This document shows positions 5,354 through 52,713 of a stretch of DNA of 64,000 bases, one piece after another. Both the position numbers and the translations under genes were made by a program. The stretch spans positions 1 to 64,000 of IMG/VR virus record IMGVR_UViG_3300028031_000001; one strand, 5' to 3'. This stretch comes from a virus. Taxonomy: Duplodnaviria; Heunggongvirae; Uroviricota; Caudoviricetes. A model generated the notes under the pieces. The model was given only the letters and a program-made list of their open reading frames with translations. It was not told the DNA's origin and did no database searches. How positions within the stretch are numbered: the stretch's first letter is position 1; each line of letters begins with the position of its first letter.

Positions 5354-5422
5354 TGAAAATACTTCTGGCTTTTTGCGAAAGTATAAGTTAAGATATATTA
5401 AATCAAAAACAGGAATAAAACT

Positions 5423-5872: not shown

Positions 5873-6417
5873 AAGTTCTAGGTGTCGATATTAGTATGAA
5901 TAATTTAGGACTATCATTAGGAGAGCTTGATGATCATACTTTAGCACTCAGCTTTACAGAGTTAATTACAATTAAAACTAAAAAAGATGGCAAGTTCATA
6001 AAGCAGTTTAACCAAAGGATGGATGACCTTAGAAGGGCTAGACTTTTAGTTGAAGGCTTTCGGGAAATGGAAGAGAAGTGCGAAATTATTTTTGTAGAGC
6101 TGCCACATGGATCGCAGAGTTCTAGAGCCATGACTTCTTATGGGATGTCTATAATGCTAATGGCATATACCTTAAAGCCGGTCATAGTAGTAACGCCGAA
6201 CCAAGTTAAGGTTGTGGCTACGCATTACGGAGAAGCTTCTAAGAAGGAAATGGTTAAGTGGGCTTCGGATAAATACCCAAACGCTACATGGAAAAAATCG
6301 AAAGCTGGGGTTATTTACGAGAATAATGAACATAATGCGGATGCGATTGCGGCGGTAGAGGCTGGAATTTTACTGGATAGCTTTGTTAATGCCAAAATAA
6401 TGATGGAATATTTATGA
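5869..6417 (+). CDS. RuvC-like Holliday junction resolvase
   Basis: N-terminal MKVLGVDIS and C-terminal NEHNADAIAAVEAG resemble the RuvC catalytic Asp clusters (GIDPG ... DAADALAIA). Confidence 0.55.
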   Translation: MKVLGVDISMNNLGLSLGELDDHTLALSFTELITIKTKKDGKFIKQFNQRMDDLRRARLLVEGFREMEEKCEIIFVELPHGSQSSRAMTSYGMSIMLMAYTLKPVIVVTPNQVKVVATHYGEASKKEMVKWASDKYPNATWKKSKAGVIYENNEHNADAIAAVEAGILLDSFVNAKIMMEYL

Positions 6418-6884
6418 TCACTTTAAAAGCTATAGCTATTAAAGGTGGTATTCACATATCTTGGAAATTAAATAATGTTTGCGAATATACAGAATTTGTA
6501 AAAGTTTTTTCTAGCCCAACATCAAAATTTGTAGATGCTAAATTAATATACGAAGGGGTATCTGAATATTTCAACCATTACTTTGACCAAAAATTAAGAA
6601 GTCTTATAGGTAAAACGAGATATTATTTCGCATATGTTGTGAAAGAAAAAAATGCGGTAGTTTTTAACCAAAATGATTCTGTCGTATTTGCAAAGGGTGG
6701 GGACATTGCAAAAGAATTGATATTAACCCCATCACAAGCCTCTATGGTTGGCCCTGAGGTAAATATACAAGTAAATAAGGCAAGGCTCAACAAAAAAGAA
6801 AGGTTAGCAATTCAATGGGAAAAAACAAAAATAAAACTTGACCTTGAAATAGACCAAGAATTTAGTAAAGATTTTTTATTTTAA
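6414..6884 (+). CDS. Hypothetical protein
   Basis: 156-aa ORF with overlapping start and stop with neighbours. Confidence 0.45.
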   Translation: MITLKAIAIKGGIHISWKLNNVCEYTEFVKVFSSPTSKFVDAKLIYEGVSEYFNHYFDQKLRSLIGKTRYYFAYVVKEKNAVVFNQNDSVVFAKGGDIAKELILTPSQASMVGPEVNIQVNKARLNKKERLAIQWEKTKIKLDLEIDQEFSKDFLF

Positions 6885-6907
6885 ACAACCAGCGGTAAGG
6901 AAGTTAT

Positions 6908-9434: not shown

Positions 9435-9801
9435 CAAAACTATAGTTTATTATGCAAGAAATGAAGGGTTATATTTTACATATCAGGAAGATCGTGACAT
9501 AGAAACGATAGAGCAATTAGGTTTTGAAGTGGCTGATTTTCCAAAAAAATATGAAATACATAAAGAGAAGTCTAAGGTTGATGGGGATGTGATGGCATTA
9601 TTTCATAAGGTAATTGAGGAGTGTTATATTTTATTTTTCCGCAGGCTGATAAATGGTAAAATTAGCGCTGGAGTTTTTAGCGAAATAAAGTTCGCTCAGA
9701 AATTAGGTATACCGGTTTTGGAGTTACCAACAATTATGCCGTCTGACGGCTTAAGCGTTGAAGAGACAAGATGTGTATTGCGATACCTTGGAGAGAGATA
9801 A
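9424..9801 (+). CDS. Nucleoside 2-deoxyribosyltransferase-like / DUF4406-like Rossmann protein
   Basis: GKISAGVFSEIKFAQKLGIPVLEL resembles the catalytic Glu motif (SxGxxxExGxAxAxGKPV) of the deoxyribosyltransferase/Rcl family. Confidence 0.4.
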   Translation: MDNSKTIVYYARNEGLYFTYQEDRDIETIEQLGFEVADFPKKYEIHKEKSKVDGDVMALFHKVIEECYILFFRRLINGKISAGVFSEIKFAQKLGIPVLELPTIMPSDGLSVEETRCVLRYLGER

Positions 9802-10265
9802 TGATAAGTCCAATTGATAAATTTATTACAGAAAGTAATGCGATTGAGGGTATTTTTGGAAACCCAACACACGCAGAAAGAGATGAGCTTATGAGATTTA
9901 TCGATCTGGATGAGCTTACAGTAATAGATGTGACAAAATTTGTTAGAGTTTATCAACCAGACGCGAAGTTAAGGAAAACTGTAGGTTTAAACGTTCGGGT
10001 TGGAAGTTATCTTCCGCCAGAAGGTGGCCCAAGGGTTTTAGATAATCTTAAATCAATATTACACTCCGCAAATTTAGAAGAGGACTCAGGGCCGAATTCT
10101 GCGTATTATATACATCATAGATACGAAAGCCTACACCCATATACAGATGGTAATGGCCGCTCAGGAAGGGCGATATGGCTTTGGCAAATGGGACAAAGAG
10201 GTTTTGGGTTACCATTTCTACAATCATTTTATTATCAAGCGCTAGACGCTGGACACAGGGGTTAG
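9771..10265 (+). CDS. Fic/Doc family protein (putative AMPylase)
   Basis: Canonical Fic motif HPYTDGNGRSGR (HPFx[DE]GNGR). Confidence 0.8.
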   Translation: MCIAIPWREIMISPIDKFITESNAIEGIFGNPTHAERDELMRFIDLDELTVIDVTKFVRVYQPDAKLRKTVGLNVRVGSYLPPEGGPRVLDNLKSILHSANLEEDSGPNSAYYIHHRYESLHPYTDGNGRSGRAIWLWQMGQRGFGLPFLQSFYYQALDAGHRG

Positions 10266-13177: not shown

Positions 13178-13458
13178 GTGATCCAGTATTTATTGAAGAA
13201 CCAGAGGAAGAATTACCCACAACGCTTATAGAGCTTCTAACTGAAGATAGTATAAACAAATTTAAAGTGATTATTATTTATGGAGATATTATAACTATGA
13301 GAGTTATGTTATCTAAACTAAATTCTTATTATATCCCAGCACAAGGCCAAACAATTAATATTCATTTGGATAGCGGGTTGCATAAAATAAGATTTAAAAA
13401 TCGCAAAATAGCAAAAATTGCAGAATCTAATTTAAATGAAATATTGGAAAATTTATAA
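13174..13458 (+). CDS. Hypothetical protein
   Basis: 94-aa ORF with overlapping stop and start. Confidence 0.4.
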   Translation: MSDPVFIEEPEEELPTTLIELLTEDSINKFKVIIIYGDIITMRVMLSKLNSYYIPAQGQTINIHLDSGLHKIRFKNRKIAKIAESNLNEILENL

Positions 13459-14120
13459 TGGAGAAATATAAGATGACAGGCTTTCAGAAGGTAAAACAGT
13501 TTTGCAGAACTTTTGGTCATGCGTGTAGAAATACAGCTACTCAAATTGACGAAACAACATCTAGACTACGCCTAACTTTAATCGTTGAGGAGACTGCGGA
13601 AGTAGTCGGTGCATACATAGGTAATGCGCAACATAAACATCACCTAAAAGCGGCTCAAGAACATATTTTGATTGCGGAAAAACTTATACAGGAGGCTCAG
13701 AATTATGAATTTTTAGATATCGATCTTGAAAATCTAGCTAAAGAGTTAACTGACGTTAATTATGTAGTTTACGGAGCTGGCGCGGCATTCGGGTTAAATC
13801 TTGACGAGTGTATGGCCGCAGTTCACACAAGTAACATGAGTAAGTTAAACGATGATGGTAGACCTGAATTTAATGATATAGGTAAGGTAGTTAAAGGTGG
13901 TAATTACAAAGAGCCGGACATCGCTGGAATAATTTTTCCAGAACCTTTAGTCGGATTCCATAACGACCCTAGCTATAAAGGTGGGTCGGTTAAAGATGGC
14001 CAATTTACTGGCGAATTAGAAGGTAAAGAAATTTTTGCGCCTTTAAAAAACACCAACAAAGTATATACTGGTAAGGGAAAAATAAAAGATAGAAACGCCC
14101 CAACAAAAGAAGATAAATAA
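13458..14120 (+). CDS. MazG-like nucleoside triphosphate pyrophosphohydrolase
   Basis: LIVEETAEVV contains the MazG EExxE motif, and there is a downstream ExxD (ELTDVNY). Confidence 0.5.
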   Translation: MEKYKMTGFQKVKQFCRTFGHACRNTATQIDETTSRLRLTLIVEETAEVVGAYIGNAQHKHHLKAAQEHILIAEKLIQEAQNYEFLDIDLENLAKELTDVNYVVYGAGAAFGLNLDECMAAVHTSNMSKLNDDGRPEFNDIGKVVKGGNYKEPDIAGIIFPEPLVGFHNDPSYKGGSVKDGQFTGELEGKEIFAPLKNTNKVYTGKGKIKDRNAPTKEDK

Positions 14121-14737
14121 TGGCTATCGGTCTAATAGGCGCTCATAGGGTGGGTAAAACCACCCTAGCAGCAGCAGCGGCAGAAAAGTCAAACATTCCA
14201 TTCATTCCTACAAACTTATCCGCAATTTTGAGGCGTGAAAAAATAGATTTATCTAAGCCAATAGATATCATGCGAAAGATGGAGATACAGCAGATGCTTT
14301 TGGACGAGACTGTAGAGTTGTTTAAAACTCAACAGGGCTCGTATATAACCGATAGGACTCCACTTGATATGCTGGCCTATGTATTAGCGGAAATAGGCCC
14401 ACATGCGTCTCTAGAGGCTTCAGAGTCTATATTAAAGTACTCTAAAGACTGCTTTACACATACAAACCAATTATTTGATCTAATCGTGCTCGTACAACCG
14501 GGAATTGAAATCAAACAAGATATTAAAAAAGAAACGGCACCTATAAACCAAGCATATATAGAAACTTTAAACTATATTATGACTGGACTTATTTATAATG
14601 AATCCTGCACCCCTAAAAAGTTTATAATTCAAAGGGATTGTATAGATTTCGATAAAAGAGCGGAAATTATTGCGCATTTTTTATCCATTTTAGATAATTC
14701 GAAAAATTATTATCCGGAAGGTACAGTTTTTCATTGA
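14120..14737 (+). CDS. P-loop kinase of the AAA_28 / NadR-kinase-like family
   Basis: Walker A IGLIGAHRVGKTTL at the N-terminus. The size and layout fit small nucleotide or nucleoside kinases. Confidence 0.55.
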   Translation: MAIGLIGAHRVGKTTLAAAAAEKSNIPFIPTNLSAILRREKIDLSKPIDIMRKMEIQQMLLDETVELFKTQQGSYITDRTPLDMLAYVLAEIGPHASLEASESILKYSKDCFTHTNQLFDLIVLVQPGIEIKQDIKKETAPINQAYIETLNYIMTGLIYNESCTPKKFIIQRDCIDFDKRAEIIAHFLSILDNSKNYYPEGTVFH

Positions 14738-24583: not shown

Positions 24584-25273
24584 ATGAGTAAATTTGAATG
24601 TGGTGGACTTAAGAAAGGTGAGTTATTTATAATGTCTCAAGCGATAGGTACTGGTAGAAGTTTAAGAAACGAAACCATCTTAAGGTATAAATCTGATGCG
24701 ATGCGCATACGAATGGCCGAGGAATTCGCCACACAGGCCCACAAGGGGCAGTTAAGGCGCTTTGGAGAGGGTGAGGCATACATAGAGCACCCTAAACGCG
24801 TAGCGAAGCGTGTAAGCGATGCTAGACTTTCTGTAGAAGCTATACAATCCGCCTTATTGCACGATGTGGTTGAAGATTGTGATGTTACATCGGAACAAAT
24901 CTATAAAAAGTTTGGGGATGTAGTTGGTCGATACGTTGACGTTATGACCGACATACCATATATAAAAGGTGGCCCGAATCGAGCTGCTAGAAAAGAAATA
25001 ACAAGAAATAAATTCCTATTGCTTCAGGGTCTTGAGTCAATCGAGGTTGCAACAATCAAGGTAGCTGATTGTATTGATAATGCCGTTAGTATTAAAGAAA
25101 ATGACCCTGATTTTTGGAGGGTATTTCGTAAAGAAATATTTGCACTATCCGGAATATTGACTCTAGCAGAGCCTAATATGCATGATAAACTACGGGATAT
25201 TCTTGAAATGCCTCGTAGAATACACACTAAAAAGGTATTAAGTTTATGGGAATATGGGGAACTAAAAATTTAA
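24584..25273 (+). CDS. HD-domain (p)ppGpp hydrolase-like protein (small alarmone hydrolase, SpoT/Mesh1 family)
   Basis: AHKGQLRRFGEGEAYIEHPKRVA ... ALLHDVVEDCDVT matches the RelA/SpoT HD hydrolase motifs (HxGQxR, HDVVEDT). Confidence 0.8.
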   Translation: MSKFECGGLKKGELFIMSQAIGTGRSLRNETILRYKSDAMRIRMAEEFATQAHKGQLRRFGEGEAYIEHPKRVAKRVSDARLSVEAIQSALLHDVVEDCDVTSEQIYKKFGDVVGRYVDVMTDIPYIKGGPNRAARKEITRNKFLLLQGLESIEVATIKVADCIDNAVSIKENDPDFWRVFRKEIFALSGILTLAEPNMHDKLRDILEMPRRIHTKKVLSLWEYGELKI

Positions 25274-28047: not shown

Positions 28048-28235
28048 ATGCATTAGCTAAAATTTTTCAAACCGTAGCAATGATAGGGCTAATATTAACC
28101 TCTATTATATCGATAGTTTTACCATATGACCCCGACCTCCAATCTGAATTGTTATATATTCAGTTAAAACTTTTGGTTATTGGGTATTATAGTATCATGG
28201 CTTTTGTCATCCCAAACCTGAAAATGAAAAAGTAA
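28044..28235 (+). CDS. Small membrane protein
   Basis: 63 aa, hydrophobic. Confidence 0.3.
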   Translation: MNALAKIFQTVAMIGLILTSIISIVLPYDPDLQSELLYIQLKLLVIGYYSIMAFVIPNLKMKK

Positions 28236-28902
28236 TTCATGCTATGCCAGCATTTTCAGGAACTACCAATATATATCAATCCTTAATGTTTTCAATGAGT
28301 TATAAGCATAGCTCCAAAAGAGATAACAGCCCATTCAACTACACCCAACCCACCTATTCTTAAAACACCCCTCCCAAGCAGATAAATACTTAAACCAGCT
28401 TTTATATAAACCCAACTGTATTTATATCTTAATTATCAATGACTTACTATAAACAATCCCACACCGCGTTACACTTTAGACGACGTAGTATCTTAATAAA
28501 GCATAGTAAATCACCTAAAAACAGATATCTATTACTTTTTGGAATACATCAATCTACATACTTTCTTATTGGGAATATATGACCCATTTTACCTTTGATA
28601 TTAGCTCAATTCCACTTTAAAGGTTGTTATTTGTTTTATGTACCTATAAAAATGGTTAAATGGATATGTAGAAGCTTATGTGGGCTCTGTGGCTGTATTT
28701 AAAATGAAAAGGAACCCCGTTACCCAGATAATGACTAAAACGTCTCCACCGGGCTTAAATTCATTGTATTTCTTTTCGGATATAAGAAAGGAAGAGAAAG
28801 CAATTTGGATTTTGAGTTCCATAAATTTTTATAAAAGGGGAGCTTTCTTAATAGAGAAAAAAATGAAGACCTCTGGGGATATATTCAAATATACAGACAT
28901 AA

Positions 28903-28972
28903 TAATATCCTAATATTTAAACATAGTAATATCTTAATATTTGAATATTCGTATATAGCAATATCTTAATAT
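28903..28972. repeat. Three iteron-like copies of AATATC(C/T)TAATATT in a 1.6 kb non-coding region
   Basis: Copies begin near 28905, 28927 and 28958. Each has an internal palindrome AATATT. The flanks are AT-rich. Confidence 0.5.
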
Positions 28973-29788
28973 TCAAATATGGTCACGCAGGAACAGTTCT
29001 TCTTCAGAATCCAAAGCTGCGGGATACTACTTTTGGATGTTATATTTTATTCAAATCCTTTTATACCTTATTGATTGATAGGAAATGTATTAGAACATAG
29101 GTGGTACGCCATGTATAGCTATTTATGGTTTATTTCTATATAGGGGTTAGAGACTCTGTAGTATCCTGTAAGAGGTGTTTTCAAAAGTAATAGCGTGGTA
29201 TAGGTTAGGGTTTAAAGCGTGTCAGAATGGGCTGTATAAGGCGTATATGGTGCGTATATAGATTTTTATAGTATACCGAATAAGGCGAAAAGAAATATTT
29301 TGTGGCTAAAATGGAATTTTTTCACAATTTTAGCAAGCCCTATATGCATTTTATTTACAATACGCAATAATATTCCCCTATTGGCTAATTTCACAGAATA
29401 ATATACCCCCAAAACCCCTTTAAACAGAATATTATGCCTATTTGCGTATTTCTCACCTCAAAACCTTGACTTTCCGGATGTCAATAGTTTCAGATTAAAT
29501 AAATATACGCTTTAATTGTTTTTTTGTGCTAAAATTATAGTAACGTGTTGATTTTGCTGTAGTTTCTTAAATATTAGACAGGTTCGGTGTTTATCTTCGC
29601 CGAATCTGCCAGCGCCAAAGCTATTATAACCTAAAAAAAACATCAAAAACAAGCTATTTATTGAGAAAAAAATCGTTGGGGATTTAATTTGTGTTTTCAA
29701 TGATAATGCGGTCTGTAGAGCTACACATTCTTGTTTCCCTACGGGAAGAGACTTTTTATATTAAAGGGGCGATATGATAGGTAAAAAA

Positions 29789-31809: not shown

Positions 31810-32313
31810 ATGAACCATATCCAAGCATTCTTTACCTTCTTAATATCTATATCCTTTATGGGGGCTATATGCTGGTATACGTACCATGAGATACGCACCA
31901 GCCTAGAAGAGATCAAGCCTATAGCTGGCTGTAACGTAGCAGAGCACGTCTATTTTGTATCTGCTTGCTTGTCTCACCTCTCTGATGCAGATAACAGCAT
32001 TCGTAGCAATGTATTGAGTGGATACCTTTCCAACACTAACCACAGGCATATCGATGGCTGCTATGAAGGTATGGCAGAGGATAGCTATGCAGTATGCGGC
32101 AGTACCGACTATGGTCTATTACAGGCTATTAAGACCGGTTTACTGTGGGGGCAGCATAGCATTCTACATGTGAACGTAGAACGTATCTGCACGCTTCACT
32201 TTATGGCCGGCGGTAGTGAGGTAATCGGCAAACTGTACTCTCAATGGGATAAACCGATTGATACAGATTACTCACACGACGCACGTACAGGTCTGTACTG
32301 GACGATAAGCTAG
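31810..32313 (+). CDS. Membrane-anchored protein; a solitary + strand gene inside the - strand block
   Basis: N-terminal TM helix (FFTFLISISFMGAICWY). It has its own promoter and is Cys/His-rich. Confidence 0.5.
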   Translation: MNHIQAFFTFLISISFMGAICWYTYHEIRTSLEEIKPIAGCNVAEHVYFVSACLSHLSDADNSIRSNVLSGYLSNTNHRHIDGCYEGMAEDSYAVCGSTDYGLLQAIKTGLLWGQHSILHVNVERICTLHFMAGGSEVIGKLYSQWDKPIDTDYSHDARTGLYWTIS

Positions 32314-38567: not shown

Positions 38568-38879
38568 TTATATGTCATACCCTCTTAAATCGGAAGTAAA
38601 GTAGTTACTAGCTATTGTACGCAACTCATAACTAACTTCATGAGGTTTAAGTTCAACTATCTCGCCTAGCAAATTTATAAAAACTATATGTTGGTTTGCT
38701 TTATCTATCCAATAACATTGTTGTTTTTGTTTTGGCTTGCTGTAGCCATTATACACTGGAGTGCCTGATTTTGTACGCCTAAGATACTTGTGTTTATATT
38801 CGTCTTCAGACAAATTATTCAAAATATCCTTAAGGGTCTTTCGATCTTTGTATTCCTTAAGCCACATTCGTTTTTTCAC
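38568..38879 (-). CDS. Hypothetical protein
   Basis: 103-aa ORF coupled to the downstream NAMPT-like gene. Confidence 0.4.
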   Translation of the reverse strand: MKKRMWLKEYKDRKTLKDILNNLSEDEYKHKYLRRTKSGTPVYNGYSKPKQKQQCYWIDKANQHIVFINLLGEIVELKPHEVSYELRTIASNYFTSDLRGYDI

Positions 38880-40327
38880 GACCCATTTAGACGTTCTCTG
38901 ATTTCGGACAGCGTGGTTATATTTTTTATTTCACTATCTAGGAAAACAGTCTGTAAAAGACCCCCCTGTTCTTCTTCCGAGGTACATTGATCTTTGATAG
39001 ACCCGTCATGCTCGACGCGAAGCAAACCCTTTGCGGATCGCTTAAGTCCATTGTCGGTCTTTGGGTCTTTGAAGATTTCGCGATGCTCACCATCAACAAT
39101 ACCATAAGTCGCTTTGACCGCAAATCCGTGCGTGTCCCGAGTCACCATTTGGTACGTAAAGCTGCCTACTCCAAATACAATATTGCTAGATGCAAAACCA
39201 GCGGCTTCTAAATTACTTAAAATCTCATCAGCACGGTCGTAAGTGATGCTGTCTCCATATATCAAACCGATATGTGGATTAAGAACTTTGTAACCCTGTT
39301 CATTGTCAGTTCCACCAAATGTATCCCAAAGACATTGAATAGTTCCCTGAGCAATAGCGGAATCATCCGATTCGTAGTCGCCACAAATTATTTTAACCGG
39401 GTCTCCCGAGTCTGGCCGAATTACCACCTTTCCATCACGAGCTAATATTTTATCCTTAAGTTGCGGTAAGAATTCTGTAATAACTTTCCAGTAGTCCCAT
39501 GAGTCAGATACGATAGATACAATCCCTTTGGGATATACATCCTCTATCAATTCTCTAAAGGTTTCAATCTCGTTATCTTTTCCTCTTAGACACATAACGG
39601 AATGCTCTGTAGCGGGAACTGACATACCTATGATTTCGCTATCGCTGTCGGCTCCGTAGTAATTCTCTAGGAAATCAATTGCGGGAATGGTATCCGTACC
39701 TAAGAAACTTAACAAATGCCCGGCACCGCTCATAGACGCGGCCTCAACACCCGGTAAACCCCTCATAGAGAAGTCGTGTGCCTGAAAGTCTACACCGTCG
39801 GTTGTTCCGGTTGTTTGTATTGCATATTTATCAAGTAGTTGGCGATATTTATCCGCAGTACTTGCGGAAGTCATGGGTAACCACAAACTTGTTGATAATA
39901 AAGTCTCTAAGTAATTAACCAACCAAGAAAAGTCCGCGTGGGTGTTGGTTATAGTAAGCATTGGAACTCTATGGTCGCATCGAGTGCCTTCCGGAAGAGC
40001 TTTGATTAGTAGGGGAAGATATCCCAAATCCCACAAAGCCGCGACATGGCTGACGCCTACAGAGTCTTCACCAAGTGCGTTATCAAGGCGGCGTTTGTAT
40101 CGGCTAACAACTTTAGCTTTATTAACGCTAAAAAAATCTTCGTCAAACTGTTTCATTAAGTATTCTAAAATAAAATACTGAATGCCAAATACGACCGTGT
40201 AATCCATTCCGGAATAAGGCCCGCCGCGAGGCGTTAAATTTGAATAAATTTTAGTTGTCTTAGCCGGATACTGCTGAATATGTCCAACCTTATAAAAATC
40301 GGTTAAATGTATAGGGTGTAATTTCAT
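38876..40327 (-). CDS. Nicotinamide phosphoribosyltransferase-like protein (NadV/NAMPT family; an alternative reading is Namat of NARP1)
   Basis: 483 aa. NAMPT-family features run across the whole length (the Tyr-rich N-terminus FYKVGH, GTDT, SDSWDYW, GVGSF). Confidence 0.75.
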   Translation of the reverse strand: MKLHPIHLTDFYKVGHIQQYPAKTTKIYSNLTPRGGPYSGMDYTVVFGIQYFILEYLMKQFDEDFFSVNKAKVVSRYKRRLDNALGEDSVGVSHVAALWDLGYLPLLIKALPEGTRCDHRVPMLTITNTHADFSWLVNYLETLLSTSLWLPMTSASTADKYRQLLDKYAIQTTGTTDGVDFQAHDFSMRGLPGVEAASMSGAGHLLSFLGTDTIPAIDFLENYYGADSDSEIIGMSVPATEHSVMCLRGKDNEIETFRELIEDVYPKGIVSIVSDSWDYWKVITEFLPQLKDKILARDGKVVIRPDSGDPVKIICGDYESDDSAIAQGTIQCLWDTFGGTDNEQGYKVLNPHIGLIYGDSITYDRADEILSNLEAAGFASSNIVFGVGSFTYQMVTRDTHGFAVKATYGIVDGEHREIFKDPKTDNGLKRSAKGLLRVEHDGSIKDQCTSEEEQGGLLQTVFLDSEIKNITTLSEIRERLNGS

Positions 40328-41085
40328 AATACTCTTCCTTTTGGTGTGTAAATTTCGTCTATCAATCCATCAAAAACTTTAAAACCTTTTGTGAAAAAAC
40401 CATGCGATACACAAAGTATTATTTTTTTCGCACCATGCTTGCGCAACTTCTTTGCTATCTCTATGAAGGTTCTTCCTCCATCACAGATATCATCCACTAT
40501 AACGCAGGTTTTGTCAAGAACTTTTTCATAATCATGTACTATGGTTTTTAAAATTTTGCCCGTTGCCAACTGCCTAACTTTGGAGCAGTGGACTAGCCCG
40601 CCAATATTTTCAGAATGTACTTCTGCAAGTTTCTCCGACTTGTGAATGGCTCCAGCGTCTGGAGCAACAATAATCCACCCCTTTTCTAGACACGATAATG
40701 CTCCGAAAAAATTTGCGAACTGCGGAATTGATATGCAGTTATTAATTAATGCTGAAGTAACTGGCGAATGGGGGTCGAGAATTTGTACCCTTGAAAATTC
40801 GAGATTATTTACCAGATCAGTAAAAACTTTGATGGACAAAGACTCGCCCTTAGTCATTACGCGGTCTTGCCTACTAAAGGGCACATAATGCATTATCAAC
40901 AAACCAAGACTCAAATTGCAGCGTTTGATGGCGTCACAAACCAATAGAAGGTCTATAATACTGTCAGAACCATCGAACTCAAATCTAACATTAATAATTT
41001 CGCTCGTAATATTACTAACTTTTACATTCCTCTCTCCACATGGAAAGGAAAAAAATCTTACGTCCGCACCTGTTAATCTTATCAT
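40324..41085 (-). CDS. Ribose-phosphate pyrophosphokinase-like protein (Prs family; an alternative reading is ADP-ribose pyrophosphate synthetase Adps of NARP1)
   Basis: PRPP-binding motif VIVDDICDGGRTF. At 253 aa it is shorter than canonical Prs of about 315 aa. The gene is translationally coupled to the NAMPT-like gene. Confidence 0.65.
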   Translation of the reverse strand: MIRLTGADVRFFSFPCGERNVKVSNITSEIINVRFEFDGSDSIIDLLLVCDAIKRCNLSLGLLIMHYVPFSRQDRVMTKGESLSIKVFTDLVNNLEFSRVQILDPHSPVTSALINNCISIPQFANFFGALSCLEKGWIIVAPDAGAIHKSEKLAEVHSENIGGLVHCSKVRQLATGKILKTIVHDYEKVLDKTCVIVDDICDGGRTFIEIAKKLRKHGAKKIILCVSHGFFTKGFKVFDGLIDEIYTPKGRVL

Positions 41086-41199
41086 TTTTGCACCCTCTTT
41101 ACCCTACACCCATATGTATTTTTCAATTAACAAGTTAGGGTATGTTATGTGATCCGAATGCTTATCTGGTAATGCCGCATCACATACCCTCATTGCTAC

Positions 41200-45108: not shown

Positions 45109-45627
45109 CTATCCTAATTCCATCAACTTCTTAATTTGTTCTAATTTAAAATTTACATTAGAAGTGTGTTGGCAAAATTGTACGCCAATACCTCCGCGAT
45201 TTGTCCATTCATCTAATACGGACTGCCTGTCGTCTATAAGGATCGCTGCGGGCTGGGCAAAAGCTCCCTTACCTACCGTATTCATACAGAATGCCATAGG
45301 TATATCTCGAATACCTTGAGCTGCTAACCAATCAATCTTTTGTATGGCAATCTCGTTGTGGTATCTGCCGCCACCAGTGCTGGTCATAATACACGGATTA
45401 TAGCCCAATTCTTTGACGTCGAAAAATAATTGTATACCAGTTTTAACCGGCTCAAGGGTAGAAAAAAAACGGTTAGAGTGTACGTCCCTATTCCAATAAG
45501 CTTCTGCGATGTCTGGATCGTTTATAAGCTGTTCCACATTACTTAGACCGCTGACGCCATACCATTCCAAAAATGCTTTGTCAAAGTTCGCCAAAACTCC
45601 ATCCATATCAAAATATAAGTGCTTCAT
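45109..45627 (-). CDS. HAD-family 5'(3')-deoxyribonucleotidase
   Basis: N-terminal MKHLYFDMDGVLANFDKAF (DxDGVL motif I of the NT5C family). Confidence 0.75.
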   Translation of the reverse strand: MKHLYFDMDGVLANFDKAFLEWYGVSGLSNVEQLINDPDIAEAYWNRDVHSNRFFSTLEPVKTGIQLFFDVKELGYNPCIMTSTGGGRYHNEIAIQKIDWLAAQGIRDIPMAFCMNTVGKGAFAQPAAILIDDRQSVLDEWTNRGGIGVQFCQHTSNVNFKLEQIKKLMELG

Positions 45628-46953: not shown

Positions 46954-47250
46954 CTATTTGTTGTCAAGAGCCTTGTATTTCATGTTAATTCTGTAGATCG
47001 CCTGTGATTTGCACCAATCCATCCACGGTGCTCTACAATCCCCTTGGATGTGTATACCATTCTTCTGAAAAATACAACCGCCCGGACATTTTTGCCTTGC
47101 TATCTTTTGAAGTTCCATATCTTTAAATTTATCATCGTAACCTTGGAACATATTATTTCTCCAAACTGTGTTATATAACGAACAACTAATTGCCCAATTG
47201 TTCATTATATAAGACAATTGGCAGGCCCGCCTCGAATCGAACGAGGTCAT
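46954..47250 (-). CDS. Cys-rich hypothetical protein
   Basis: 98-aa ORF (CPGGCIFQKNGIHIQGDC). Confidence 0.4.
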   Translation of the reverse strand: MTSFDSRRACQLSYIMNNWAISCSLYNTVWRNNMFQGYDDKFKDMELQKIARQKCPGGCIFQKNGIHIQGDCRAPWMDWCKSQAIYRINMKYKALDNK

Positions 47251-47293
47251 GGAAGATTCAAAATCTCCTGTGTTCCCACTTCACCACGAACCT
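47219..47293 (-). tRNA. tRNA-Gln(TTG)
   Basis: T-arm CCTCG-TTCGATT-CGAGG, anticodon loop TTTTGAA, acceptor AGGTTCG/CGGGCCT and encoded CCA. Confidence 0.6.
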
Positions 47294-47299
47294 ATTGAT

Positions 47300-47386
47300 T
47301 GGAGGAGAGAGTCAGAATTGAACTGAAAACTGTGAAATTCGCACTGGTTAGCAACCGTACCCTATAACCATATAGGATCACTCTCC
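47300..47386 (-). tRNA. tRNA-like gene, possibly type II, anticodon undetermined
   Basis: T-loop TTCAATT, acceptor GGAGAGT/TCTCTCC and a D-arm, but no clean anticodon stem. Confidence 0.3.
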
Positions 47387-47395
47387 AAAATTAGT

Positions 47396-47470
47396 TGGTG
47401 GGTCTACCGAGCAACGATCTCGGACAGTCTGATTAAAAGTCAGATATGCTGCCAATTACATCATAGACCC
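47396..47470 (-). tRNA. tRNA-Lys(TTT)
   Basis: Full cloverleaf: acceptor GGGTCTA/TAGACCC, anticodon stem TCTGA/TCAGA with loop CTTTTAA, encoded CCA. Confidence 0.7.
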
Positions 47471-47712
47471 AAAGTTTGATTGCAACTTTGCTGGTCTGGC
47501 TTAATGATGCGGATCAATTCTCTTGACCCTGTTGTTCCTGTATTCATTTTAGTTCCTTAGTAGTGAGGGTTTTGACCATCACGTAATCTTTTATCTGCCG
47601 CAGCTTCAAAGCCTTGTTCGAAGATTCGTCCTATTTTTTTGATAGACGTTTCAATAAGAATCAATAATTTTAGAGTTTCTGCTGTTGTCATTTTCATTTC
47701 AATTCCTTAATT

Positions 47713-47788
47713 TGGTAGGCCCGGAGAGACTCGAACTCTCATAAATCTGGTTAGAAGCCAGATGCCTGTCCAGTTAGACTACGAGCCT
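47713..47788 (-). tRNA. tRNA-Arg(TCT)
   Basis: Full cloverleaf: T-arm GAGAG-TTCGAGT-CTCTC, anticodon loop CTTCTAA, encoded CCA. Confidence 0.7.
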
Positions 47789-48008
47789 ATAAATCTTCAA
47801 CCTCTTCTAAAGGTTGAAATGTTCCATGTTTAGGGTCTGAATCATAATGGTATTCTAAATCTTCAAAAACTTCCCCAAACTTGCTTCGATCACCCAAAAA
47901 ACCCTCTCCATTCCAGGAACCATAGTTGAAATTTCTTCCGATTCCACGGTACAATTGTCCGAATTTCATATCTTCTAGTTTTAAATAATTATCTTTTAAG
48001 TAATTCAT
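47787..48008 (-). CDS. Hypothetical small protein within the tRNA array
   Basis: 73-aa ORF between tRNA genes. Confidence 0.35.
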   Translation of the reverse strand: MNYLKDNYLKLEDMKFGQLYRGIGRNFNYGSWNGEGFLGDRSKFGEVFEDLEYHYDSDPKHGTFQPLEEVEDL

Positions 48009-48025
48009 AATAATATTCTCGTTAT

Positions 48026-48097
48026 TGGCTCACCCACTTGGAGTCGAACCAAGAAAAATTTCCTTCGTAGGGAAATGGCATTCCTATCGCTGGGTGA
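48026..48097 (-). tRNA. tRNA-Arg(ACG)
   Basis: T-arm CTTGG-TTCGACT-CCAAG, anticodon stem TTTCC/GGAAA with loop CTACGAA, encoded CCA. Confidence 0.65.
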
Positions 48098-48103
48098 ATT
48101 GTT

Positions 48104-48179
48104 TGGTACGGGTAGAAGGTTATGCTCCTCCGGTAAGCGCTTATAAGACGCCCGTTTTCACTAATTAAACTATACCCGC
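48104..48179 (-). tRNA. tRNA-Ile(TAT)-like gene with a non-canonical T-loop AGCATAA
   Basis: Acceptor GCGGGTA/TACCCGT, D-stem GTTT/AAAC, anticodon loop CTTATAA, encoded CCA. The T-loop lacks a TTC. Confidence 0.35.
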
Positions 48180-48542
48180 ACAATGCGGGTTATCTCTGTG
48201 TCCATCACTTAATCTCCTGATTGGGCCAGTGCTCGTTAAACAATCTTGATGGTTGGCTCGTGCCAATCCATTTCTTATAAATCAGCTTGTCGCCGAAATA
48301 AACGAAAAGATTGTTATCTATTTTGACTGAGCGCATACAATCTCCTAATAAGTCGGGGCGGAAGAATCGAACTTCCTTGCGCACTGCGACTGGCTGCTCC
48401 AGCAAACCCCCATTGTTTGGTGCGGGGCTGAGTAGTTGCACCTCAGATTTCTAATACTCTGTCACAGGTTATGATCCTATTTGGAGACGCAAAAGTTATC
48501 ACGCTGTACAAACGCTTCCGTCTTGCTTACACCCGCGTTACT

Positions 48543-48617
48543 TGGTAGACCTACGAGGTTATGCTCCCCGGTTGCTCGCGTATCAGACGAGTGCCTTCAC
48601 TATTAGACGATAGGTCA
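48543..48617 (-). tRNA. tRNA-Ile(GAT)-like gene with the same unusual T-loop AGCATAA
   Basis: Anticodon stem CTCGT/GCGAG with loop CTGATAC, T-stem CGGGG/CCTCG and a CCA-like 3' end. Confidence 0.4.
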
Positions 48618-48691
48618 ATAAAATATTCTATCATTTAAGACATCTTAGAAGCGTTAAAGTTTCGTAATATATCACAAATGACACCTAAATT

Positions 48692-48761
48692 TGGGGTGAC
48701 GTAGAGAATCGAACTCTTTAGTTCCGGATCACAACCGGGCCTTCTCCCTGAGAAACGCCAC
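48692..48761 (-). tRNA. tRNA-His(GTG)
   Basis: Acceptor GTGGCGT/ACGTCAC with a C discriminator. Anticodon loop TTGTGAT. T-loop TTCGATT. Encoded CCA. Confidence 0.5.
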
Positions 48762-48999
48762 ATCTTTAAACTTAATACATACTTAAGTCGTCTTTAAGGG
48801 TCTAATATGGCCTTAAAGCAACATTATAAAATTGAACCATATTGGTTTGAAATAAGCAAATTCAACCGTATTGGTTTATTTCGTGATATTCAACTAATAT
48901 GGTTGAATTGGTCAAGGCGGCGTGTTCTGCCCACGCTCCTCCGAGTTCCAAACCCGGCAGCTTATCTGAACTTGCCCTCGCCAAGAAGGTTTTAAAATT

Positions 49000-49085
49000 T
49001 GGTACTCCGAGAAAGATTTGAACTTTCAATCCCTTACGGGCGCTGGTTTCTAAAACCAGAGTGTATACCGTTCCACCACCGGAGC
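49000..49085 (-). tRNA. tRNA-Leu(TAG), type II
   Basis: T-arm GAAAG-TTCAAAT-CTTTC, anticodon stem CTGGT/ACCAG with loop TTTAGAA, long variable arm, encoded CCA. Confidence 0.7.
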
Positions 49086-49143
49086 ATTGTTCTTAGACTT
49101 GACACTTCGACTCTAATTGTCTCATGTGAGAGGTCTGTAAAAT

Positions 49144-49229
49144 TGGTACATCCGGAGAGACTCGAACTCTCAATCCATCTCAGGCGTTGGATTTTAAGTC
49201 CAATGTGTATCCCATTCCACCACAGATGC
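49144..49229 (-). tRNA. tRNA-Leu(TAA), type II
   Basis: T-arm GAGAG-TTCGAGT-CTCTC, anticodon stem TTGGA/TCCAA with loop CTTAAAA, long variable arm, encoded CCA. Confidence 0.7.
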
Positions 49230-49317
49230 ATAAATAATGCAGAACGTCATTACCGGCATCAGCCTCGACCTTAAAGGTTACGTGACCTCATATCCAAAGA
49301 TATGTCTGTTGGGTCAA

Positions 49318-49396
49318 TTTGGTCGCCAAGGTGGGAGTCGAACCCACGTCTGTTCTGCTTATGAGGCAGAGCTGGTGCCACTCCAGTCACTCGGCA
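49318..49396 (-). tRNA. tRNA-Met/Ile2(CAT)
   Basis: T-arm GTGGG-TTCGACT-CCCAC, anticodon stem TCTGC/GCAGA with loop CTCATAA, encoded CCA. The 5' boundary is uncertain by about 1 nt. Confidence 0.55.
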
Positions 49397-49467
49397 TTAA
49401 TTTTTACTTAAAACTTTCATTATCCGCAAGTTTTGCGGAAAATACGGCTATTAATCTCCGCAATTTT

Positions 49468-49553
49468 TGGTGTGCGTGGTAAGGAATCAAACCTACCAAG
49501 CCCAGAGGCGACGGGGTTACAATCCGCCAGCTTTCTCAGTTGCATACACGCAC
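49468..49553 (-). tRNA. Putative tRNA-Tyr(GTA), type II
   Basis: Perfect acceptor GTGCGTG/CACGCAC, loop TTGTAAC in an imperfect stem, long variable arm, encoded CCA. The T-arm is non-canonical. Confidence 0.4.
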
Positions 49554-49567
49554 ATTGTCAAAAAAAA

Positions 49568-49641
49568 TGGTATTCCCTGCGGGTACTGACCCCGCGCCGT
49601 CTGGTTGAAAGCCAGATATTCTACCATTAAACTAAGGGAAT
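49568..49641 (-). tRNA. tRNA-Glu(TTC)
   Basis: Perfect acceptor ATTCCCT/AGGGAAT, anticodon stem TCTGG/CCAGA with loop CTTTCAA, T-stem GCGGG/CCCGC, encoded CCA. Confidence 0.6.
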
Positions 49642-49676
49642 AATTCCCTAAGCCTCTTGTCCTGCGTATGTATACA

Positions 49677-50084
49677 TTATTTTCTCCCAAATTCTCTTCT
49701 ATTTCTCGAAACTCTTCGAGCGTTTGCAGATTTACAAAGTTCACAACTACACTGGTAGCTTCTAGACTTATATCTGCGCATTGTTCCATGTTCTGGAACT
49801 CCAAATTCATTCTTATAATCTTGTTTTGTTTTTTTTATGTGACACGGTTTACACCTTATGGTACATTTTTCCAATTCTTTATTTCGTCTAGGAATTGCCC
49901 AAGACCATATTCTGTGTGACACTTTATCTTTTGGGTCTTTATGGTCAATTTCTAAAGATAGCATCGATCCGCAATCTGTACAACCATCTTGTCCGTTTTC
50001 TTCAAACCAATCGCTTCTTCTTTTTGCGATCCATTCTCTAGCATATTTTCTTCTCGCTTCCAAATTTTTTATTGGCATAATCAT
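49677..50084 (-). CDS. HNH endonuclease embedded in the tRNA array
   Basis: HNH motif (LEIDHKDPKDK...H) plus zinc ligands (CTDCGS ... CKPCH ... CSCELC). Confidence 0.7.
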   Translation of the reverse strand: MIMPIKNLEARRKYAREWIAKRRSDWFEENGQDGCTDCGSMLSLEIDHKDPKDKVSHRIWSWAIPRRNKELEKCTIRCKPCHIKKTKQDYKNEFGVPEHGTMRRYKSRSYQCSCELCKSANARRVSRNRREFGRK

Positions 50085-50141
50085 AATCCTATTATTTAGG
50101 GTTCAATTATACATAAAAGCACAATTATGTCAACATAAATT

Positions 50142-50216
50142 TGGAGCCCTTACGACGATTTGAACGCCGGTCTTCTGATTACAAAACAGTGGCTCTACCA
50201 ATTGAGCTATAAAGGC
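50142..50216 (-). tRNA. tRNA-Thr(TGT)-like gene
   Basis: Canonical D-arm TAGCTCAATTGGTAGAGC, T-arm CGGCG-TTCAAAT-CGTCG and encoded CCA. The anticodon stem has A:A and T:T mismatches around loop TTTGTAA, or a 9-nt loop. Confidence 0.45.
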
Positions 50217-50319
50217 ATATCTTAAATTTGGTCGTGAGACTTTCACTCACTCTCGCTTTCCAGTACGCGCATATAGGTAGCGTCTTCGCGTTTCAGATTC
50301 TGATGAGAATCTAAAGCTT

Positions 50320-50391
50320 TGGTGGATCGACAGAGTAACGATCTCTGCCTTCCGCATTGCAAGTGCAGAGTCTGTCCCATACAGCCAACCC
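50320..50391 (-). tRNA. tRNA-Ala(TGC)
   Basis: T-stem CAGAG/CTCTG, anticodon stem CTGCA/TGCGG with loop CTTGCAA, encoded CCA. Confidence 0.55.
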
Positions 50392-50533
50392 AATAACCTA
50401 ATTATTGCACAACACAATAACCTAAAATTTGTACGATCATAAGTTTACTGACATTAACCGTGCTTGGTCTGGCAAAGGGATTTTGCGGTTCCCAATGGTT
50501 TCCGGCGCACTCGAAAGTACGACTCCTAGTATT

Positions 50534-50610
50534 TGGACAGTAGAGTCGGAATTGAACCGACGTAAAGCGAGTTTGCAATCCGCTGCCTAAGCCATTCGAG
50601 CCATCTACTG
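50534..50610 (-). tRNA. tRNA-Cys(GCA)
   Basis: Perfect acceptor CAGTAGA/TCTACTG, T-arm GTCGG-TTCAATT-CCGAC, anticodon loop TTGCAAA, encoded CCA. Confidence 0.6.
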
Positions 50611-50611
50611 T

Positions 50612-50686
50612 TGGCGCACTAAGATGGGATCGAACCACCGACGCGTGAGGCTTCAACCCACCGCTCTACCACTGAGCTACAAGTGC
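50612..50686 (-). tRNA. tRNA-Phe(GAA)
   Basis: D-arm TAGCTCAGTGGTAGAGC, anticodon stem GTGGG/CTCAC with loop TTGAAGC, T-loop TTCGATC, encoded CCA. Confidence 0.65.
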
Positions 50687-50951
50687 TTAAAATTAGTGAT
50701 CGGTCTAGGTCTCCATTTATTCCCCAACTTGGGAGACTCCACGCGACCCGAAGGTTTCTGCTTTCGCTTCATCAGGCGTAAAATGTCGGGCTAGATGTCT
50801 ACAATGTCAACCAATCTGGTAGACCAACGCTCTTTCTGCCTTTCGGCAATTCTTTAATTCTTACCCCGCCTTTAATTAAGTTGTCTTTACAACTCCCCTT
50901 TATTGGTATGCCGGGGACAGTGGATTTTGCAGGCGGTCACTGTTGCGCTCT

Positions 50952-51025
50952 TGGTGCTCGGTGTTGAAATCGAATCAACGTCTCCTACTTGTAAGGAAGG
51001 TGCTAATCCCCTCAGCTAACCGAGC
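50952..51025 (-). tRNA. tRNA-Val(TAC)
   Basis: Perfect acceptor GCTCGGT/ACCGAGC, T-arm GTTGA-TTCGATT-TCAAC, anticodon loop CTTACAA, encoded CCA. Confidence 0.6.
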
Positions 51026-51321
51026 TAATTTGTTTCCTTTTCAGATTTTTATATTCTCTATTTCTTTTGCACCACGGACAATCTCCGTGTGAACGGCAAG
51101 TTCTATCTATAGACTTGCTGCCTGTGTAAGATTTTCTATTCGTTCGTGACATAAATATCCTAATATGGTGGGACAGACGCCGCTACAGCATCACCGATTA
51201 CGTTAATTATTCATAACCTACACATTTTTCGCTTTAGTAATTACTCTAAACCGACGTGTGTCGAAGGAGATTGTCGCATGACTCTCATCCTACCGCTCTA
51301 CTTTGAGCTACATCCCATGTT

Positions 51322-51396
51322 TGGTGCGTCGTCAGAGTCTCGAACTCTGCTTTCAAGGTTGGAAACCTTGCACATCGCCTACAATGTTTACAACGC
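51322..51396 (-). tRNA. tRNA-Gly(TCC)
   Basis: Acceptor GCGTTGT/ACGACGC, anticodon stem CAAGG/CCTTG with loop TTTCCAA, T-arm CAGAG-TTCGAGA-CTCTG, encoded CCA. Confidence 0.7.
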
Positions 51397-51429
51397 AATA
51401 ATCGTTTCATTTTTTGCAACGATTTAAAT

Positions 51430-51511
51430 TGGTGGAGCTGGAGCGATTCGAACGCTCGTCCGAGAGTTTCCCAATGGGCTTTACCTCTCGTCGAAACCAA
51501 AACACAGCCCC
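51430..51511 (-). tRNA. tRNA-like gene (82 nt), anticodon undetermined
   Basis: Perfect T-arm GAGCG-TTCGAAT-CGCTC, acceptor GGGGCTG/CAGCTCC and encoded CCA. The internal arm is atypical, with a 6-bp stem enclosing 18 nt. Confidence 0.35.
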
Positions 51512-51698
51512 TTATTTAAATTGTGTCGTTGATGGGGGATCGTCCCCATGCCTCCCCTACTCTATTTCAAGGCGAACTACATTATTCCACAACAACAAAA
51601 CTTCTCTAGCACATTTGATTATATCGCTACGAGCGAAACCATCTCTGGTAGTCTGCGAACGATACCTAAGTACCCTAGTACGTATCCGCTTGTTAATT

Positions 51699-51773
51699 TG
51701 GCGATCACGGTGAGAATCGAACTCACGACACGAGGATAGACAATCCACTGCTTAACCATTCAGCTTCGCAACC
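51699..51773 (-). tRNA. tRNA-Asp(GTC)-like gene
   Basis: T-arm GTGAG-TTCGATT-CTCAC, a G:U-rich acceptor, anticodon loop TTGTCTA in a stem with one T:T mismatch, encoded CCA. Confidence 0.45.
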
Positions 51774-51851
51774 TTAATTCTTTGACCACCTTTTGTTATT
51801 GCTTCTGCATTTACCTTAGCAGACCGCTCACGGGGCCGATGTCCTAGCCAG

Positions 51852-52214
51852 TTAAATAACCCTCATAATTTCTGCACGGGCTTTTATCAATTTTGAAATA
51901 TCTTGCATCGCGCCTCTGAAACTTAAAGTTTCTCCAGACGCATGGTCTGTAACTATATTTCGCTCCGCGTGGTACGTTCTAATTCTGACACTTCCAGCTC
52001 TAAATCGTTCCGTATCTTCGTGTAAACTTTTCAATACTCTCGATTTGCATACGGCAAGGGCGTTCTTTTTGTTTGTTTCGCGAGACTTGCTTCCCGTGCC
52101 TTGCGCTTTAATACCAGTAGATAAGTGTGTTACTCTACAACAATTTTGATGCTTGTTGCGATGCTGTCCACCCTTACCCGTTCCAGAAAACCATTCGATT
52201 TTATACTCATCCAT
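51852..52214 (-). CDS. RF-1 domain peptidyl-tRNA hydrolase (ArfB/YaeJ-like ribosome-rescue factor)
   Basis: GGQ motif in context: SGTGKGGQHRNKHQN...THL..TG. The protein is short (120 aa) with a basic C-terminal tail, like ArfB. Confidence 0.65.
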   Translation of the reverse strand: MDEYKIEWFSGTGKGGQHRNKHQNCCRVTHLSTGIKAQGTGSKSRETNKKNALAVCKSRVLKSLHEDTERFRAGSVRIRTYHAERNIVTDHASGETLSFRGAMQDISKLIKARAEIMRVI

Positions 52215-52636
52215 AATGGTAGTCCCTAGCCAGTTTCTTTTGTTTGTACCACTTCAGCCATTTACCAGTATTTGATTTTGACTTTTGAAGTTTTATACTT
52301 TTGTGACGCATTTTAACCTTAAATTAGTGGTTGTATTTTTGTGTCCGTCAGATGATTACCCTTACTATATTTGGGACTCTCCGATAGTTTTGTATACAAC
52401 CGTAGGGTTTAGCTCCCTCTGTAACGGTGAACTAAGGTATTCCCGTAGCTATGTTCCGATACAACTCTTTAATGCCAGTAGGTATATTTACGCTACCCGA
52501 GGTTCTTAACATTTGCTCTGCACAACCCACTGCAACATCAAAACTTTTATATTTCCCTAGCCCGCGTCTTACCGTCTGCGAAGGCGTAGGGCATACGATA
52601 CGTAGTCTAATGACCAATGAGACGCATCTTTCTTTT

Positions 52637-52713
52637 TGGCTGGCAATCAAGGGCTTGAACCTTGCGCGGTCGGATTAACAGTCCGTCGCCCACACCCGGT
52701 GGGCCTATTGCCA
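52637..52713 (-). tRNA. tRNA-Asn(GTT)
   Basis: Perfect acceptor TGGCAAT/ATTGCCA, T-arm CAAGG-TTCAAGC-CCTTG, anticodon loop CTGTTAA, encoded CCA. Confidence 0.55.

Follow-up and report, generated by a model that had tools for sequence, protein, structure and literature searches.

In a 64,000-nucleotide (nt) stretch of tailed-phage DNA (positions 1 to 64,000 of the IMG/VR virus record IMGVR_UViG_3300028031_000001; hereafter the window), we find two adjacent genes that very probably form an NAD+ reconstitution pathway 1 (NARP1) module, in which nicotinamide adenine dinucleotide (NAD+) would be rebuilt from ADP-ribose (ADPR) and nicotinamide. This reading rests on the clade membership of both proteins, the conservation of published residues, the order of the genes with their overlap, and the lack of an Nmnat (nicotinamide mononucleotide adenylyltransferase) gene in the readable genome. 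The two enzyme activities and the anti-defense role are predicted from the literature on homologues. The genes and their reading signals are:

40324..41085, minus strand: adps, predicted ADP-ribose pyrophosphate synthetase (Prs-like), 253 amino acids (aa); from the open reading frame (ORF) list and family matches

38876..40327, minus strand: namat, predicted nicotinamide ADP-ribose transferase (Nampt-like), 483 aa; from the ORF list and family matches

40324..40327, minus strand: ATGA in which the stop codon of adps and the start codon of namat overlap; read from the sequence

41093..41097, minus strand: putative Shine-Dalgarno-like GAGGG, 7 nt 5′ of the adps ATG; read from the sequence

40334..40339, minus strand: putative Shine-Dalgarno-like AGGAAG within the 3′ end of adps, 6 nt 5′ of the namat ATG

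The original prediction, made from the sequence alone, had placed a 253-aa Prs-family gene and a 483-aa Nampt-family gene at 38876-41085, and its coordinates, family matches, and motif VIVDDICDGGRTF (residues 195-207 of the 253-aa protein) were all confirmed. The adps gene lies directly upstream of namat on one strand, with a 4-nt overlap. Of the claim that the two genes are translationally coupled, the ATGA overlap stands as an observation, and the coupling is what that overlap suggests. A scan of 37.8-42.6 kb for promoters and terminators gave no signal exceeding shuffle expectation.

Phage operons of this kind, annotated as Prs plus Nampt, in fact encode Adps, which converts ADPR and ATP to ADPR-pyrophosphate (ADPR-PP), and Namat, which makes NAD+ out of ADPR-PP and nicotinamide (Osterman et al. 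2024, bioRxiv 10.1101/2024.02.11.579819). In the same study, Adps proteins make up a clade of their own apart from Prs, dominated by phages and with a Namat neighbor for 97%; 79% of Namat homologues are associated with Adps, and NARP1 is present in 859 genomes (4.3% of phages). The Nampts of a second pathway, NARP2 (KVP40-type), form a separate clade and occur with Nmnat and without Adps; no phage was found to carry both pathways (bioRxiv 10.1101/2024.02.11.579819). For phage Bas63, NAD+ restoration has been shown to be independent of host enzymes that use nicotinamide mononucleotide (NMN), by means of a ΔpncC ΔnadR host. The phage collection searched here contains 1,563 records with a relative of the Prs-like protein and 2,046 with a relative of the Nampt-like protein, a ratio of 76% that is near the published 79%.

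The 253-aa protein exceeds the gathering scores of PF00156 (Pribosyltran), PF13793 (Pribosyltran_N), and PF14572 (Pribosyl_synth) in Pfam and matches phrog_619 in PHROG (1.6e-72). Among the Prs models of NCBIfam, only the broad subfamily model TIGR01251 passes (8.8e-36); the protein scores 55-105 bits against Prs equivalogs whose cutoffs are 296-536 (for example, 105 vs. 296). Its blastp scores fall from 208 bits with the Adps of phage ctKR88 to 135 with that of a Felixounavirus (Bas63-type), 129 with ICP1, 98 with SpβL1/FADO, and 73 with E. coli Prs. In a neighbor-joining (NJ) tree, the Adps-like sequences, including the window protein, group together with 98% bootstrap, leaving the Prs of E. 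coli, B. subtilis, and archaea (4TWB) outside; the sister group of the Adps-like proteins is archaeal class III Prs. A comparison with PDB sequences matched no Adps structure, the best match being B. subtilis Prs with only 63 bits. The Felixounavirus in these comparisons, "garuso," is a stand-in for Bas63-type NARP1, and the adps of ICP1 was taken from MW794175 (isolate 2018_Mat_002), in which the gene is frameshifted and its two frames were joined.

The published "defining evolutionary signature" of Adps is that its C-terminal α11-α12 module has been lost (PMC13586617). In our alignment six residues follow the IDEIYT strand of the window protein, compared with 44 after IDEVVV in E. coli Prs; because just six residues follow that strand, the α11-α12 module is absent, and with it the interface through which PRPS forms filaments. 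The short C-terminus had already been taken in the original prediction to favor NARP1, and the published signature bears this out. The ICP1 Adps structures list acceptor residues, a remodeled PP loop, and the catalytic Lys185 (PMC13586617). We could map the ICP1 determinants onto F14 (F18) and R72 (R87), which are adenine contacts, and onto H106 (H121), D143 (D161), D198 (D212), and D199 (D213), and the catalytic lysine is kept as K169 (ICP1 K185, SpβL1 K162), a position that is lysine in 40 out of 40 metagenomic homologues. The PP loop reads C201-D-G-G-R-T206 followed by F207 (ICP1 C215-S220 and F221), where E. coli Prs has I-D-T-G-G-T-L, and the window protein has DPHS where Prs has DLHA. 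The sequence evidence thus supports an identification of the 253-aa protein as a predicted Adps and not a housekeeping Prs.

The 483-aa protein matches PF04095 (NAPRTase, 2.1e-45) and PF18127 (NAMPT_N) in Pfam, phrog_448 in PHROG (1.9e-196), and NF006629 in NCBIfam (1.1e-173). Searched against the PDB with phmmer, it scores 558 bits with SpβL1 Namat (9W5X/9W5W, the structures of PMC12774641) and ~231 with human Nampt. It is 53.5% and 54.8% identical to the Namats of SpβL1 and FADO, both experimentally validated, and 51.4% identical to a Staphylococcus phage Namat, but only 30%-36% identical to the Nampts of three phages, two of which visibly encode Nmnat. In an NJ tree (200 bootstraps), the window protein groups with the Namats, to the exclusion of those Nampts, in 100% of replicates. 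The NARP2 references were Aeromonas phage 50AhydR13PP and Ruegeria phage RpAliso, in place of KVP40; the 200-244.8 kb region of KVP40 was without nadV or natV.

The window protein keeps all the SpβL1 residues for which binding to nicotinamide, to the ribose-phosphate of NMN, or to the phosphate of AMP has been reported. The NAD+-contact residues kept are D10, Y12, F186, S187, R189, D212, A239, R304, D306, G358, D359, G388, S389, F390, T396, R397, and D398, among which F186, D212, and R304 belong to the catalytic core (SpβL1 F189, D215, and R306). Namat is distinguished by a "selectivity clamp" made up of a loop that varies (SCL) and a motif in a helix (SCH, GSXΦXΦXΦTRD), and the SCH signature is absent from Nampt (PMC12774641). 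At residues 388-398 the window protein has GSFTYQMVTRD, with the length and frame of a Namat SCH and with F390 (SpβL1 F392) at position 3, where the NARP2 Nampts have GGGLLQ.V.RD; its SCL is of Namat-type length, 3-4 residues longer than in the NARP2 Nampts. Tree and motifs together support a predicted Namat and not a NARP2-type Nampt.

A classical route through NMN would need an NMN adenylyltransferase, and the original prediction had reported that none was recognizable in the window. This is upheld: Five references were compared with the window by tblastn, namely two Nmnat/Nudix proteins and one nucleotidyltransferase from phages together with NadR and NadD of E. coli, and none matched below E = 0.5. 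CTP_transf_like was not among the 25 out of 44 matched families listed by a pooled Pfam scan of 123 window ORFs; because only these 25 are listed, that scan alone is an incomplete negative, and it is backed by the tblastn search and its positive control. As to an Nmnat gene elsewhere in the genome, which the original prediction had named as a finding that would refute it, we turned to the source contig (ENA ERZ27262698 k141_1618865, 108,577 bp), of which the window covers about 29.6-93.6 kb. In the 10-kb extensions on each side of the window, tblastn gave nothing below E = 0.1, with phage Nmnats recovered at 5e-51 as the positive control, and the precomputed Pfam lists of both extensions hold no cytidylyltransferase family. 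Homologues of Nmnat, NadD, or NadR are thus lacking from contig positions 20,083-102,950 (83 kb), and the answer to that part of the prediction holds for 76% of the 108.6-kb contig.

On the NARP1 reading, a stripped-down, unregulated Prs-like Adps would move the β,γ-pyrophosphate of ATP onto the terminal ribose of ADPR to give ADPR-PP, and Namat, a Nampt-like core with an adenine-binding clamp, would then swap the pyrophosphate for nicotinamide to give NAD+ directly, with neither an NMN intermediate nor an adenylyltransferase being needed. During infection the phage would in this way rebuild NAD+ from the two products left by host NADase defenses (Thoeris, DSR1/2, SIR2-HerA, SEFIR, and similar systems).

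The pair shares its two-gene order with the NARP1 of SpβL1 and FADO, together with the Namat catalytic and NMN-binding residues, the SCH frame, the catalytic lysine of Adps (K162, here K169), and the truncated Adps C-terminus. The Adps proteins of these Bacillus phages are, however, only 31%-34% identical to that of the window, and their PP loop reads DDLSSFGGTF, whereas that of the window is of a Gram-negative type (DDICDGGRTF). Gene spacing also differs: The 4-nt overlap of the window contrasts with SpβL1, where adps ends at the coordinate at which namat starts (2971 in locus L011), and with FADO, where the genes are ~37 nt apart. The Adps proteins of ICP1 and the Felixounavirus are closer, with 37%-40% identity and a PP loop of the form C-D-G-x-x-S/T followed by F. 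ICP1 F18, R87, H121, D161, K185, D212, and D213 are all matched by conserved window residues, and ICP1 Adps has likewise lost α11-α12. At 253 aa the window protein is smaller than these two (280-293 aa), and a ~100-aa insertion in the Felixounavirus Namat is absent from the window Namat.

In ICP1 MW794175 (locus L008, 2100-4443), adps is split by the frameshift and a stop codon interrupts the N-terminus of namat. The joined adps frames give a 280-aa protein whose numbering matches the published ICP1 Adps structures. The disruption is either a sequencing error or a decay of NARP1 in isolate 2018_Mat_002.

The nearest annotated phage record is ctKR88 (Caudoviricetes sp., MW202524), with 47.7% identity in Adps and 57.8% in Namat. 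It keeps the pair with its ATGA overlap (locus L001, 7249-8001 and 7998-9428). A phage-like metagenomic contig of 101.5 kb (L020) also has the pair with a 4-nt overlap (5258-6004 and 6001-7437), at 48.1% identity for Adps and 63% for Namat (P0010). The backbones are unrelated: ctKR88 is a 42.6-kb podovirus-like phage and the window belongs to a ~108.6-kb tRNA-rich phage, with no similarity at the DNA level. Because the same pair stands on the unrelated ctKR88 backbone without such similarity, it behaves as a mobile cassette.

Similar genes are also found in bacteria. The NrtR-regulated "prs-nadV" operons of Rodionov et al. (2008, PMC2330246), in which an Adps-type Prs paralogue lies directly upstream of a Namat-type gene as in the window, are now regarded as bacterial NARP1 (PMC12774641). 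On the chromosome of Fibrella aestuarina BUZ 2 (locus L019, 4361-9174), such an operon consists of NrtR, the Adps-type Prs paralogue, Namat, DUF4291, and an ADP-ribosylglycohydrolase (ARH). The Fibrella Namat (P0017) and that of the window share 62% identity, and the Adps-like protein scores 137 bits with the window Adps and 78 with E. coli Prs. Unlike the phage pair, the bacterial operons are chromosomal, are controlled by NrtR, which senses ADPR, and include genes for DUF4291 and an ADP-ribosylglycohydrolase; none of these lies beside the phage pair. The DUF4291 and ARH genes of Fibrella may be unstudied companions of bacterial NARP1.

These operons are what lends some weight to an alternative in which the two enzymes have NARP1 biochemistry but serve mainly in general ADPR recycling or NAD+ homeostasis during infection, and not in countering a specific NADase defense. 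Bacterial chromosomes hold Namat homologues 60%-62% identical to the window protein, in Fibrella within the operon just described; ADPR-responsive NrtR-regulated "prs-nadV" operons have been known since 2008 (PMC2330246); and one bacterial NARP1 was shown in 2026 to be catalytically active (PMC12774641). We nevertheless consider this alternative improbable. Deletion of NARP1 specifically sensitized Bas63 and FADO to SIR2-HerA and DSR2, and ADPR-PP was seen only when a defense system was present (bioRxiv 10.1101/2024.02.11.579819); the window pair, moreover, is embedded in small ORFs of early type, and neither NrtR nor ADP-ribosylglycohydrolase is encoded nearby.

Several points weigh against the assignment to NARP1 itself. 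The activities are predicted from homologues at 31%-55% identity. The search for Nmnat covers 76% of the source contig, and such a gene may lie in the other ~25.7 kb (24%). The ICP1 adenine contact F92 is Met77 in the window Adps, although this position varies (methionine in the Felixounavirus; serine in SpβL1/FADO; methionine, alanine, or asparagine in the 40 metagenomic homologues), and Met77, like Glu209 in place of ICP1 F223, is what most of those homologues have. Namat enzymes retain a PRPP (phosphoribosyl pyrophosphate)-to-NMN side activity in vitro, so that some NMN formation is possible; when PRPP and ADPR-PP were offered together, SpβL1 Namat produced exclusively NAD+. Finally, two clamp contacts are changed relative to SpβL1 Namat, R40 to P37 and Y396 to M394, and each replacement is unique to the window protein among its 120 closest Namat homologues: SCL residue 3 is arginine in 116, lysine in one, and proline in one, and SCH position 7 is tyrosine in 95, histidine in 15, phenylalanine in eight, and methionine in one. 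In SpβL1 Namat the double mutant R40A/Y396K loses ~2.4-fold of its activity (PMC12774641), while single SCL or SCH point mutations cost merely 1.3- to 1.7-fold (PMC12774641).

The clamp replacements raise the prospect that the enzyme is a Namat whose altered clamp (Pro37-Tyr38 in SCL, Met394 in SCH) has relaxed or shifted its donor selectivity compared with SpβL1 Namat; it could, for instance, accept both PRPP and ADPR-PP or be suited to some modified derivative of ADPR. Of the three residues that stack on the adenine, two are replaced together, a combination absent among the 120 closest relatives, and SpβL1 Namat carrying two clamp mutations loses activity with ADPR-PP but retains it with PRPP (PMC12774641). 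We give this a low probability, much like that of a mainly homeostatic role or marginally lower. Although SCH position 7 has been described as "most often aromatic" (PMC12774641), methionine occupies it in 17 of the 128 scorable sequences (13%) among 150 diverse Namat representatives, and SCL residue 3 varies widely in the same set. The SCL has itself been called variable, with stacking by an arginine, lysine, or tyrosine at its third residue or, as is also allowed, by the fourth (PMC12774641), which here is Tyr38 and could stack. F390 (SpβL1 F392), the residue of largest effect in the double mutants, is retained, and Adps is still encoded directly upstream. Since methionine is found in 17 out of 128 representatives, SCL residue 3 is variable, and the fourth residue may stack, the clamp is best regarded as a natural variant and not a different enzyme. 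A new clamp subtype was likewise rejected on the 13% of diverse Namats with methionine at that position.

Least probable, and in our view very unlikely, is a classical salvage pair in which the Prs-like protein makes PRPP, a NadV makes NMN, and host NadR/NadM or a phage Nmnat completes NAD+ as in NARP2: The Prs and nicotinamide phosphoribosyltransferase names carried by the Pfam, NCBIfam, and PHROG matches, the in vitro formation of NMN from PRPP by Namat enzymes, the 24% of the contig outside the Nmnat search, and the two non-consensus clamp residues are all in its favor, but both proteins fall within NARP1 clades, the Prs equivalog cutoffs are missed two- to 10-fold, the α11-α12 module is gone and the PP loop is that of an Adps, SpβL1 Adps produced ADPR-PP when given ADPR and ATP but no measurable product in a Prs-type control reaction, NARP2 Nampts have GGGLLQ for GSFTYQ and a shorter SCL, Nmnat was not found across 83 kb, and Osterman et al. 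never found both pathways in one phage. The preference for NARP1 over a Prs/NadV pair in the original prediction therefore holds, since clade placement (98% bootstrap on the Adps side and 100% on the Namat side, with no grouping with housekeeping Prs), the determinants published for the two enzymes, the order of the genes, and the lack of Nmnat all agree.

The window was also searched for other phage NAD+ pathways and for extensions of NARP1. NARP2, which pairs a KVP40-type Nampt with a bifunctional Nmnat/Nudix protein, has in common with the predicted NARP1 pair the Nampt fold, the catalytic core, and NAD+ as its end product; the window protein lies outside the NARP2 Nampt clade and Nmnat was not found. 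NARP3 consists of a PnuC-like transporter and a NadR-like bifunctional enzyme; E. coli NadR gave nothing below E = 0.8 by tblastn, and no search was aimed at PnuC. The only AAA_28 protein, at 14120-14737, was considered as a NadR-like riboside kinase and rejected, as it is a generic P-loop kinase by a MazG-like gene with no similarity to NadR. Known extensions of NARP1 are the Macro-domain phosphatase Adpp (NARP1-AP, defined by a Macro-domain gene at most two genes away from the pair) and the RyR-domain protein RyDEP. No Macro domain was matched by Pfam or PHROG in the ORFs flanking the pair, the HHpred of the original study being more sensitive, and the RyR domain PF02026 was found neither in neighboring ORFs nor among the 25 out of 44 families listed by the pooled scan.

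The window has the organization of phage DNA, with small ORFs in long same-strand blocks, and also encodes a terminase, RecA, thymidylate synthase, ribonucleotide reductase, and similar functions (Pfam scan). A megablast of the locus against the phage collection gave no match, and hence no close DNA relative. The pair is surrounded by a minus-strand block of short, early-type ORFs whose function is not known; those flanking it match only two families of unknown function and give a few Pfam matches under the curated cutoffs. An ORF of 99-103 aa at 38568-38879 (minus strand) abuts the namat stop codon, starting either at a GTG that overlaps the namat TGA or at an ATG 9 nt further on. It has zero matches in Pfam and PHROG and could be an uncharacterized NARP1 accessory gene or merely the next small gene. 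Inside the minus-strand block but on the opposite strand, at 31810-32313 (plus), an ORF with an S-adenosylmethionine lyase domain (PF23780, 7.1e-11) is likely a second counter-defense gene, of the anti-restriction/anti-BREX type.

ARAGORN reports a cluster of 15 tRNA genes at 47219-52713 (minus strand), and Rfam adds two tRNA-like matches at 48546-48617 and 51702-51773. Rfam also calls an 82-nt transfer-messenger RNA (tmRNA) at 51430-51511 on the minus strand (RF00023, 61.6 bits; gathering score 47), an element that ARAGORN does not report. The call covers the tRNA-like domain alone, with the acceptor stem GGGGCUG/CAGCUCC containing a G3:U pair, a T-arm, and an encoded CCA; 14 nt stand where the model has its 308-nt mRNA-like and pseudoknot part. 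An RF-1-domain ORF (ArfB-like peptidyl-tRNA hydrolase) lies 340 nt upstream, at 51852-52214 (minus strand), and the element may be a phage-encoded "tag-less" mini-tmRNA beside a ribosome-rescue factor.

At 28235-29512, ~1.3 kb of AT-rich sequence with few ORFs marks a switch in both coding strand and GC skew and includes short inverted repeats at 28937-28980 (for example, ATATTTGAATATTCGTATAT / ATATCTTAATATTCAAATAT). This may be a divergent promoter or origin region. Other genes in the window encode a class II ribonucleotide reductase with a faint intein match (6908-9232), a Fic-domain protein (9771-10265), a MazG-like (PRA-PH) protein followed by the AAA_28 P-loop kinase (13458-14737), an HD_4 protein of the RelA/SpoT-type HD (24584-25273), and an NT5C-like 5′-nucleotidase (45109-45627). 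Upstream of the window, the source contig carries a gene for DNA polymerase III alpha (PHP) whose product also has a UDG-domain match (locus L017, 4685-8086), and beside it lie CobT_C and AAA_5 (MoxR-like) genes and a guanylate kinase gene.

NARP1 is already known and common, having been described in 2024 from 4.3% of phages. As publications already cover the pathway, how it is distributed, and the structures of both enzymes, the window opens no new question about it. What it adds is one more carrier: The phage, ~108.6 kb in size, is uncultivated and rich in tRNAs, and nothing in the phage collection is closely related to it at the DNA level. With its nearest annotated copy in a podovirus-like genome of 42.6 kb, the NARP1 cassette is also shown to move between unrelated phage backbones. 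The clamp variant is the sole local peculiarity that we recognize in the two predicted enzymes and seems to fall inside the variation of the family; together with the compact Adps of 253 aa, this natural Namat variant could serve structure-function work. For the biology of the phage, the module predicts that NAD+-depleting defenses would be present in its host population.

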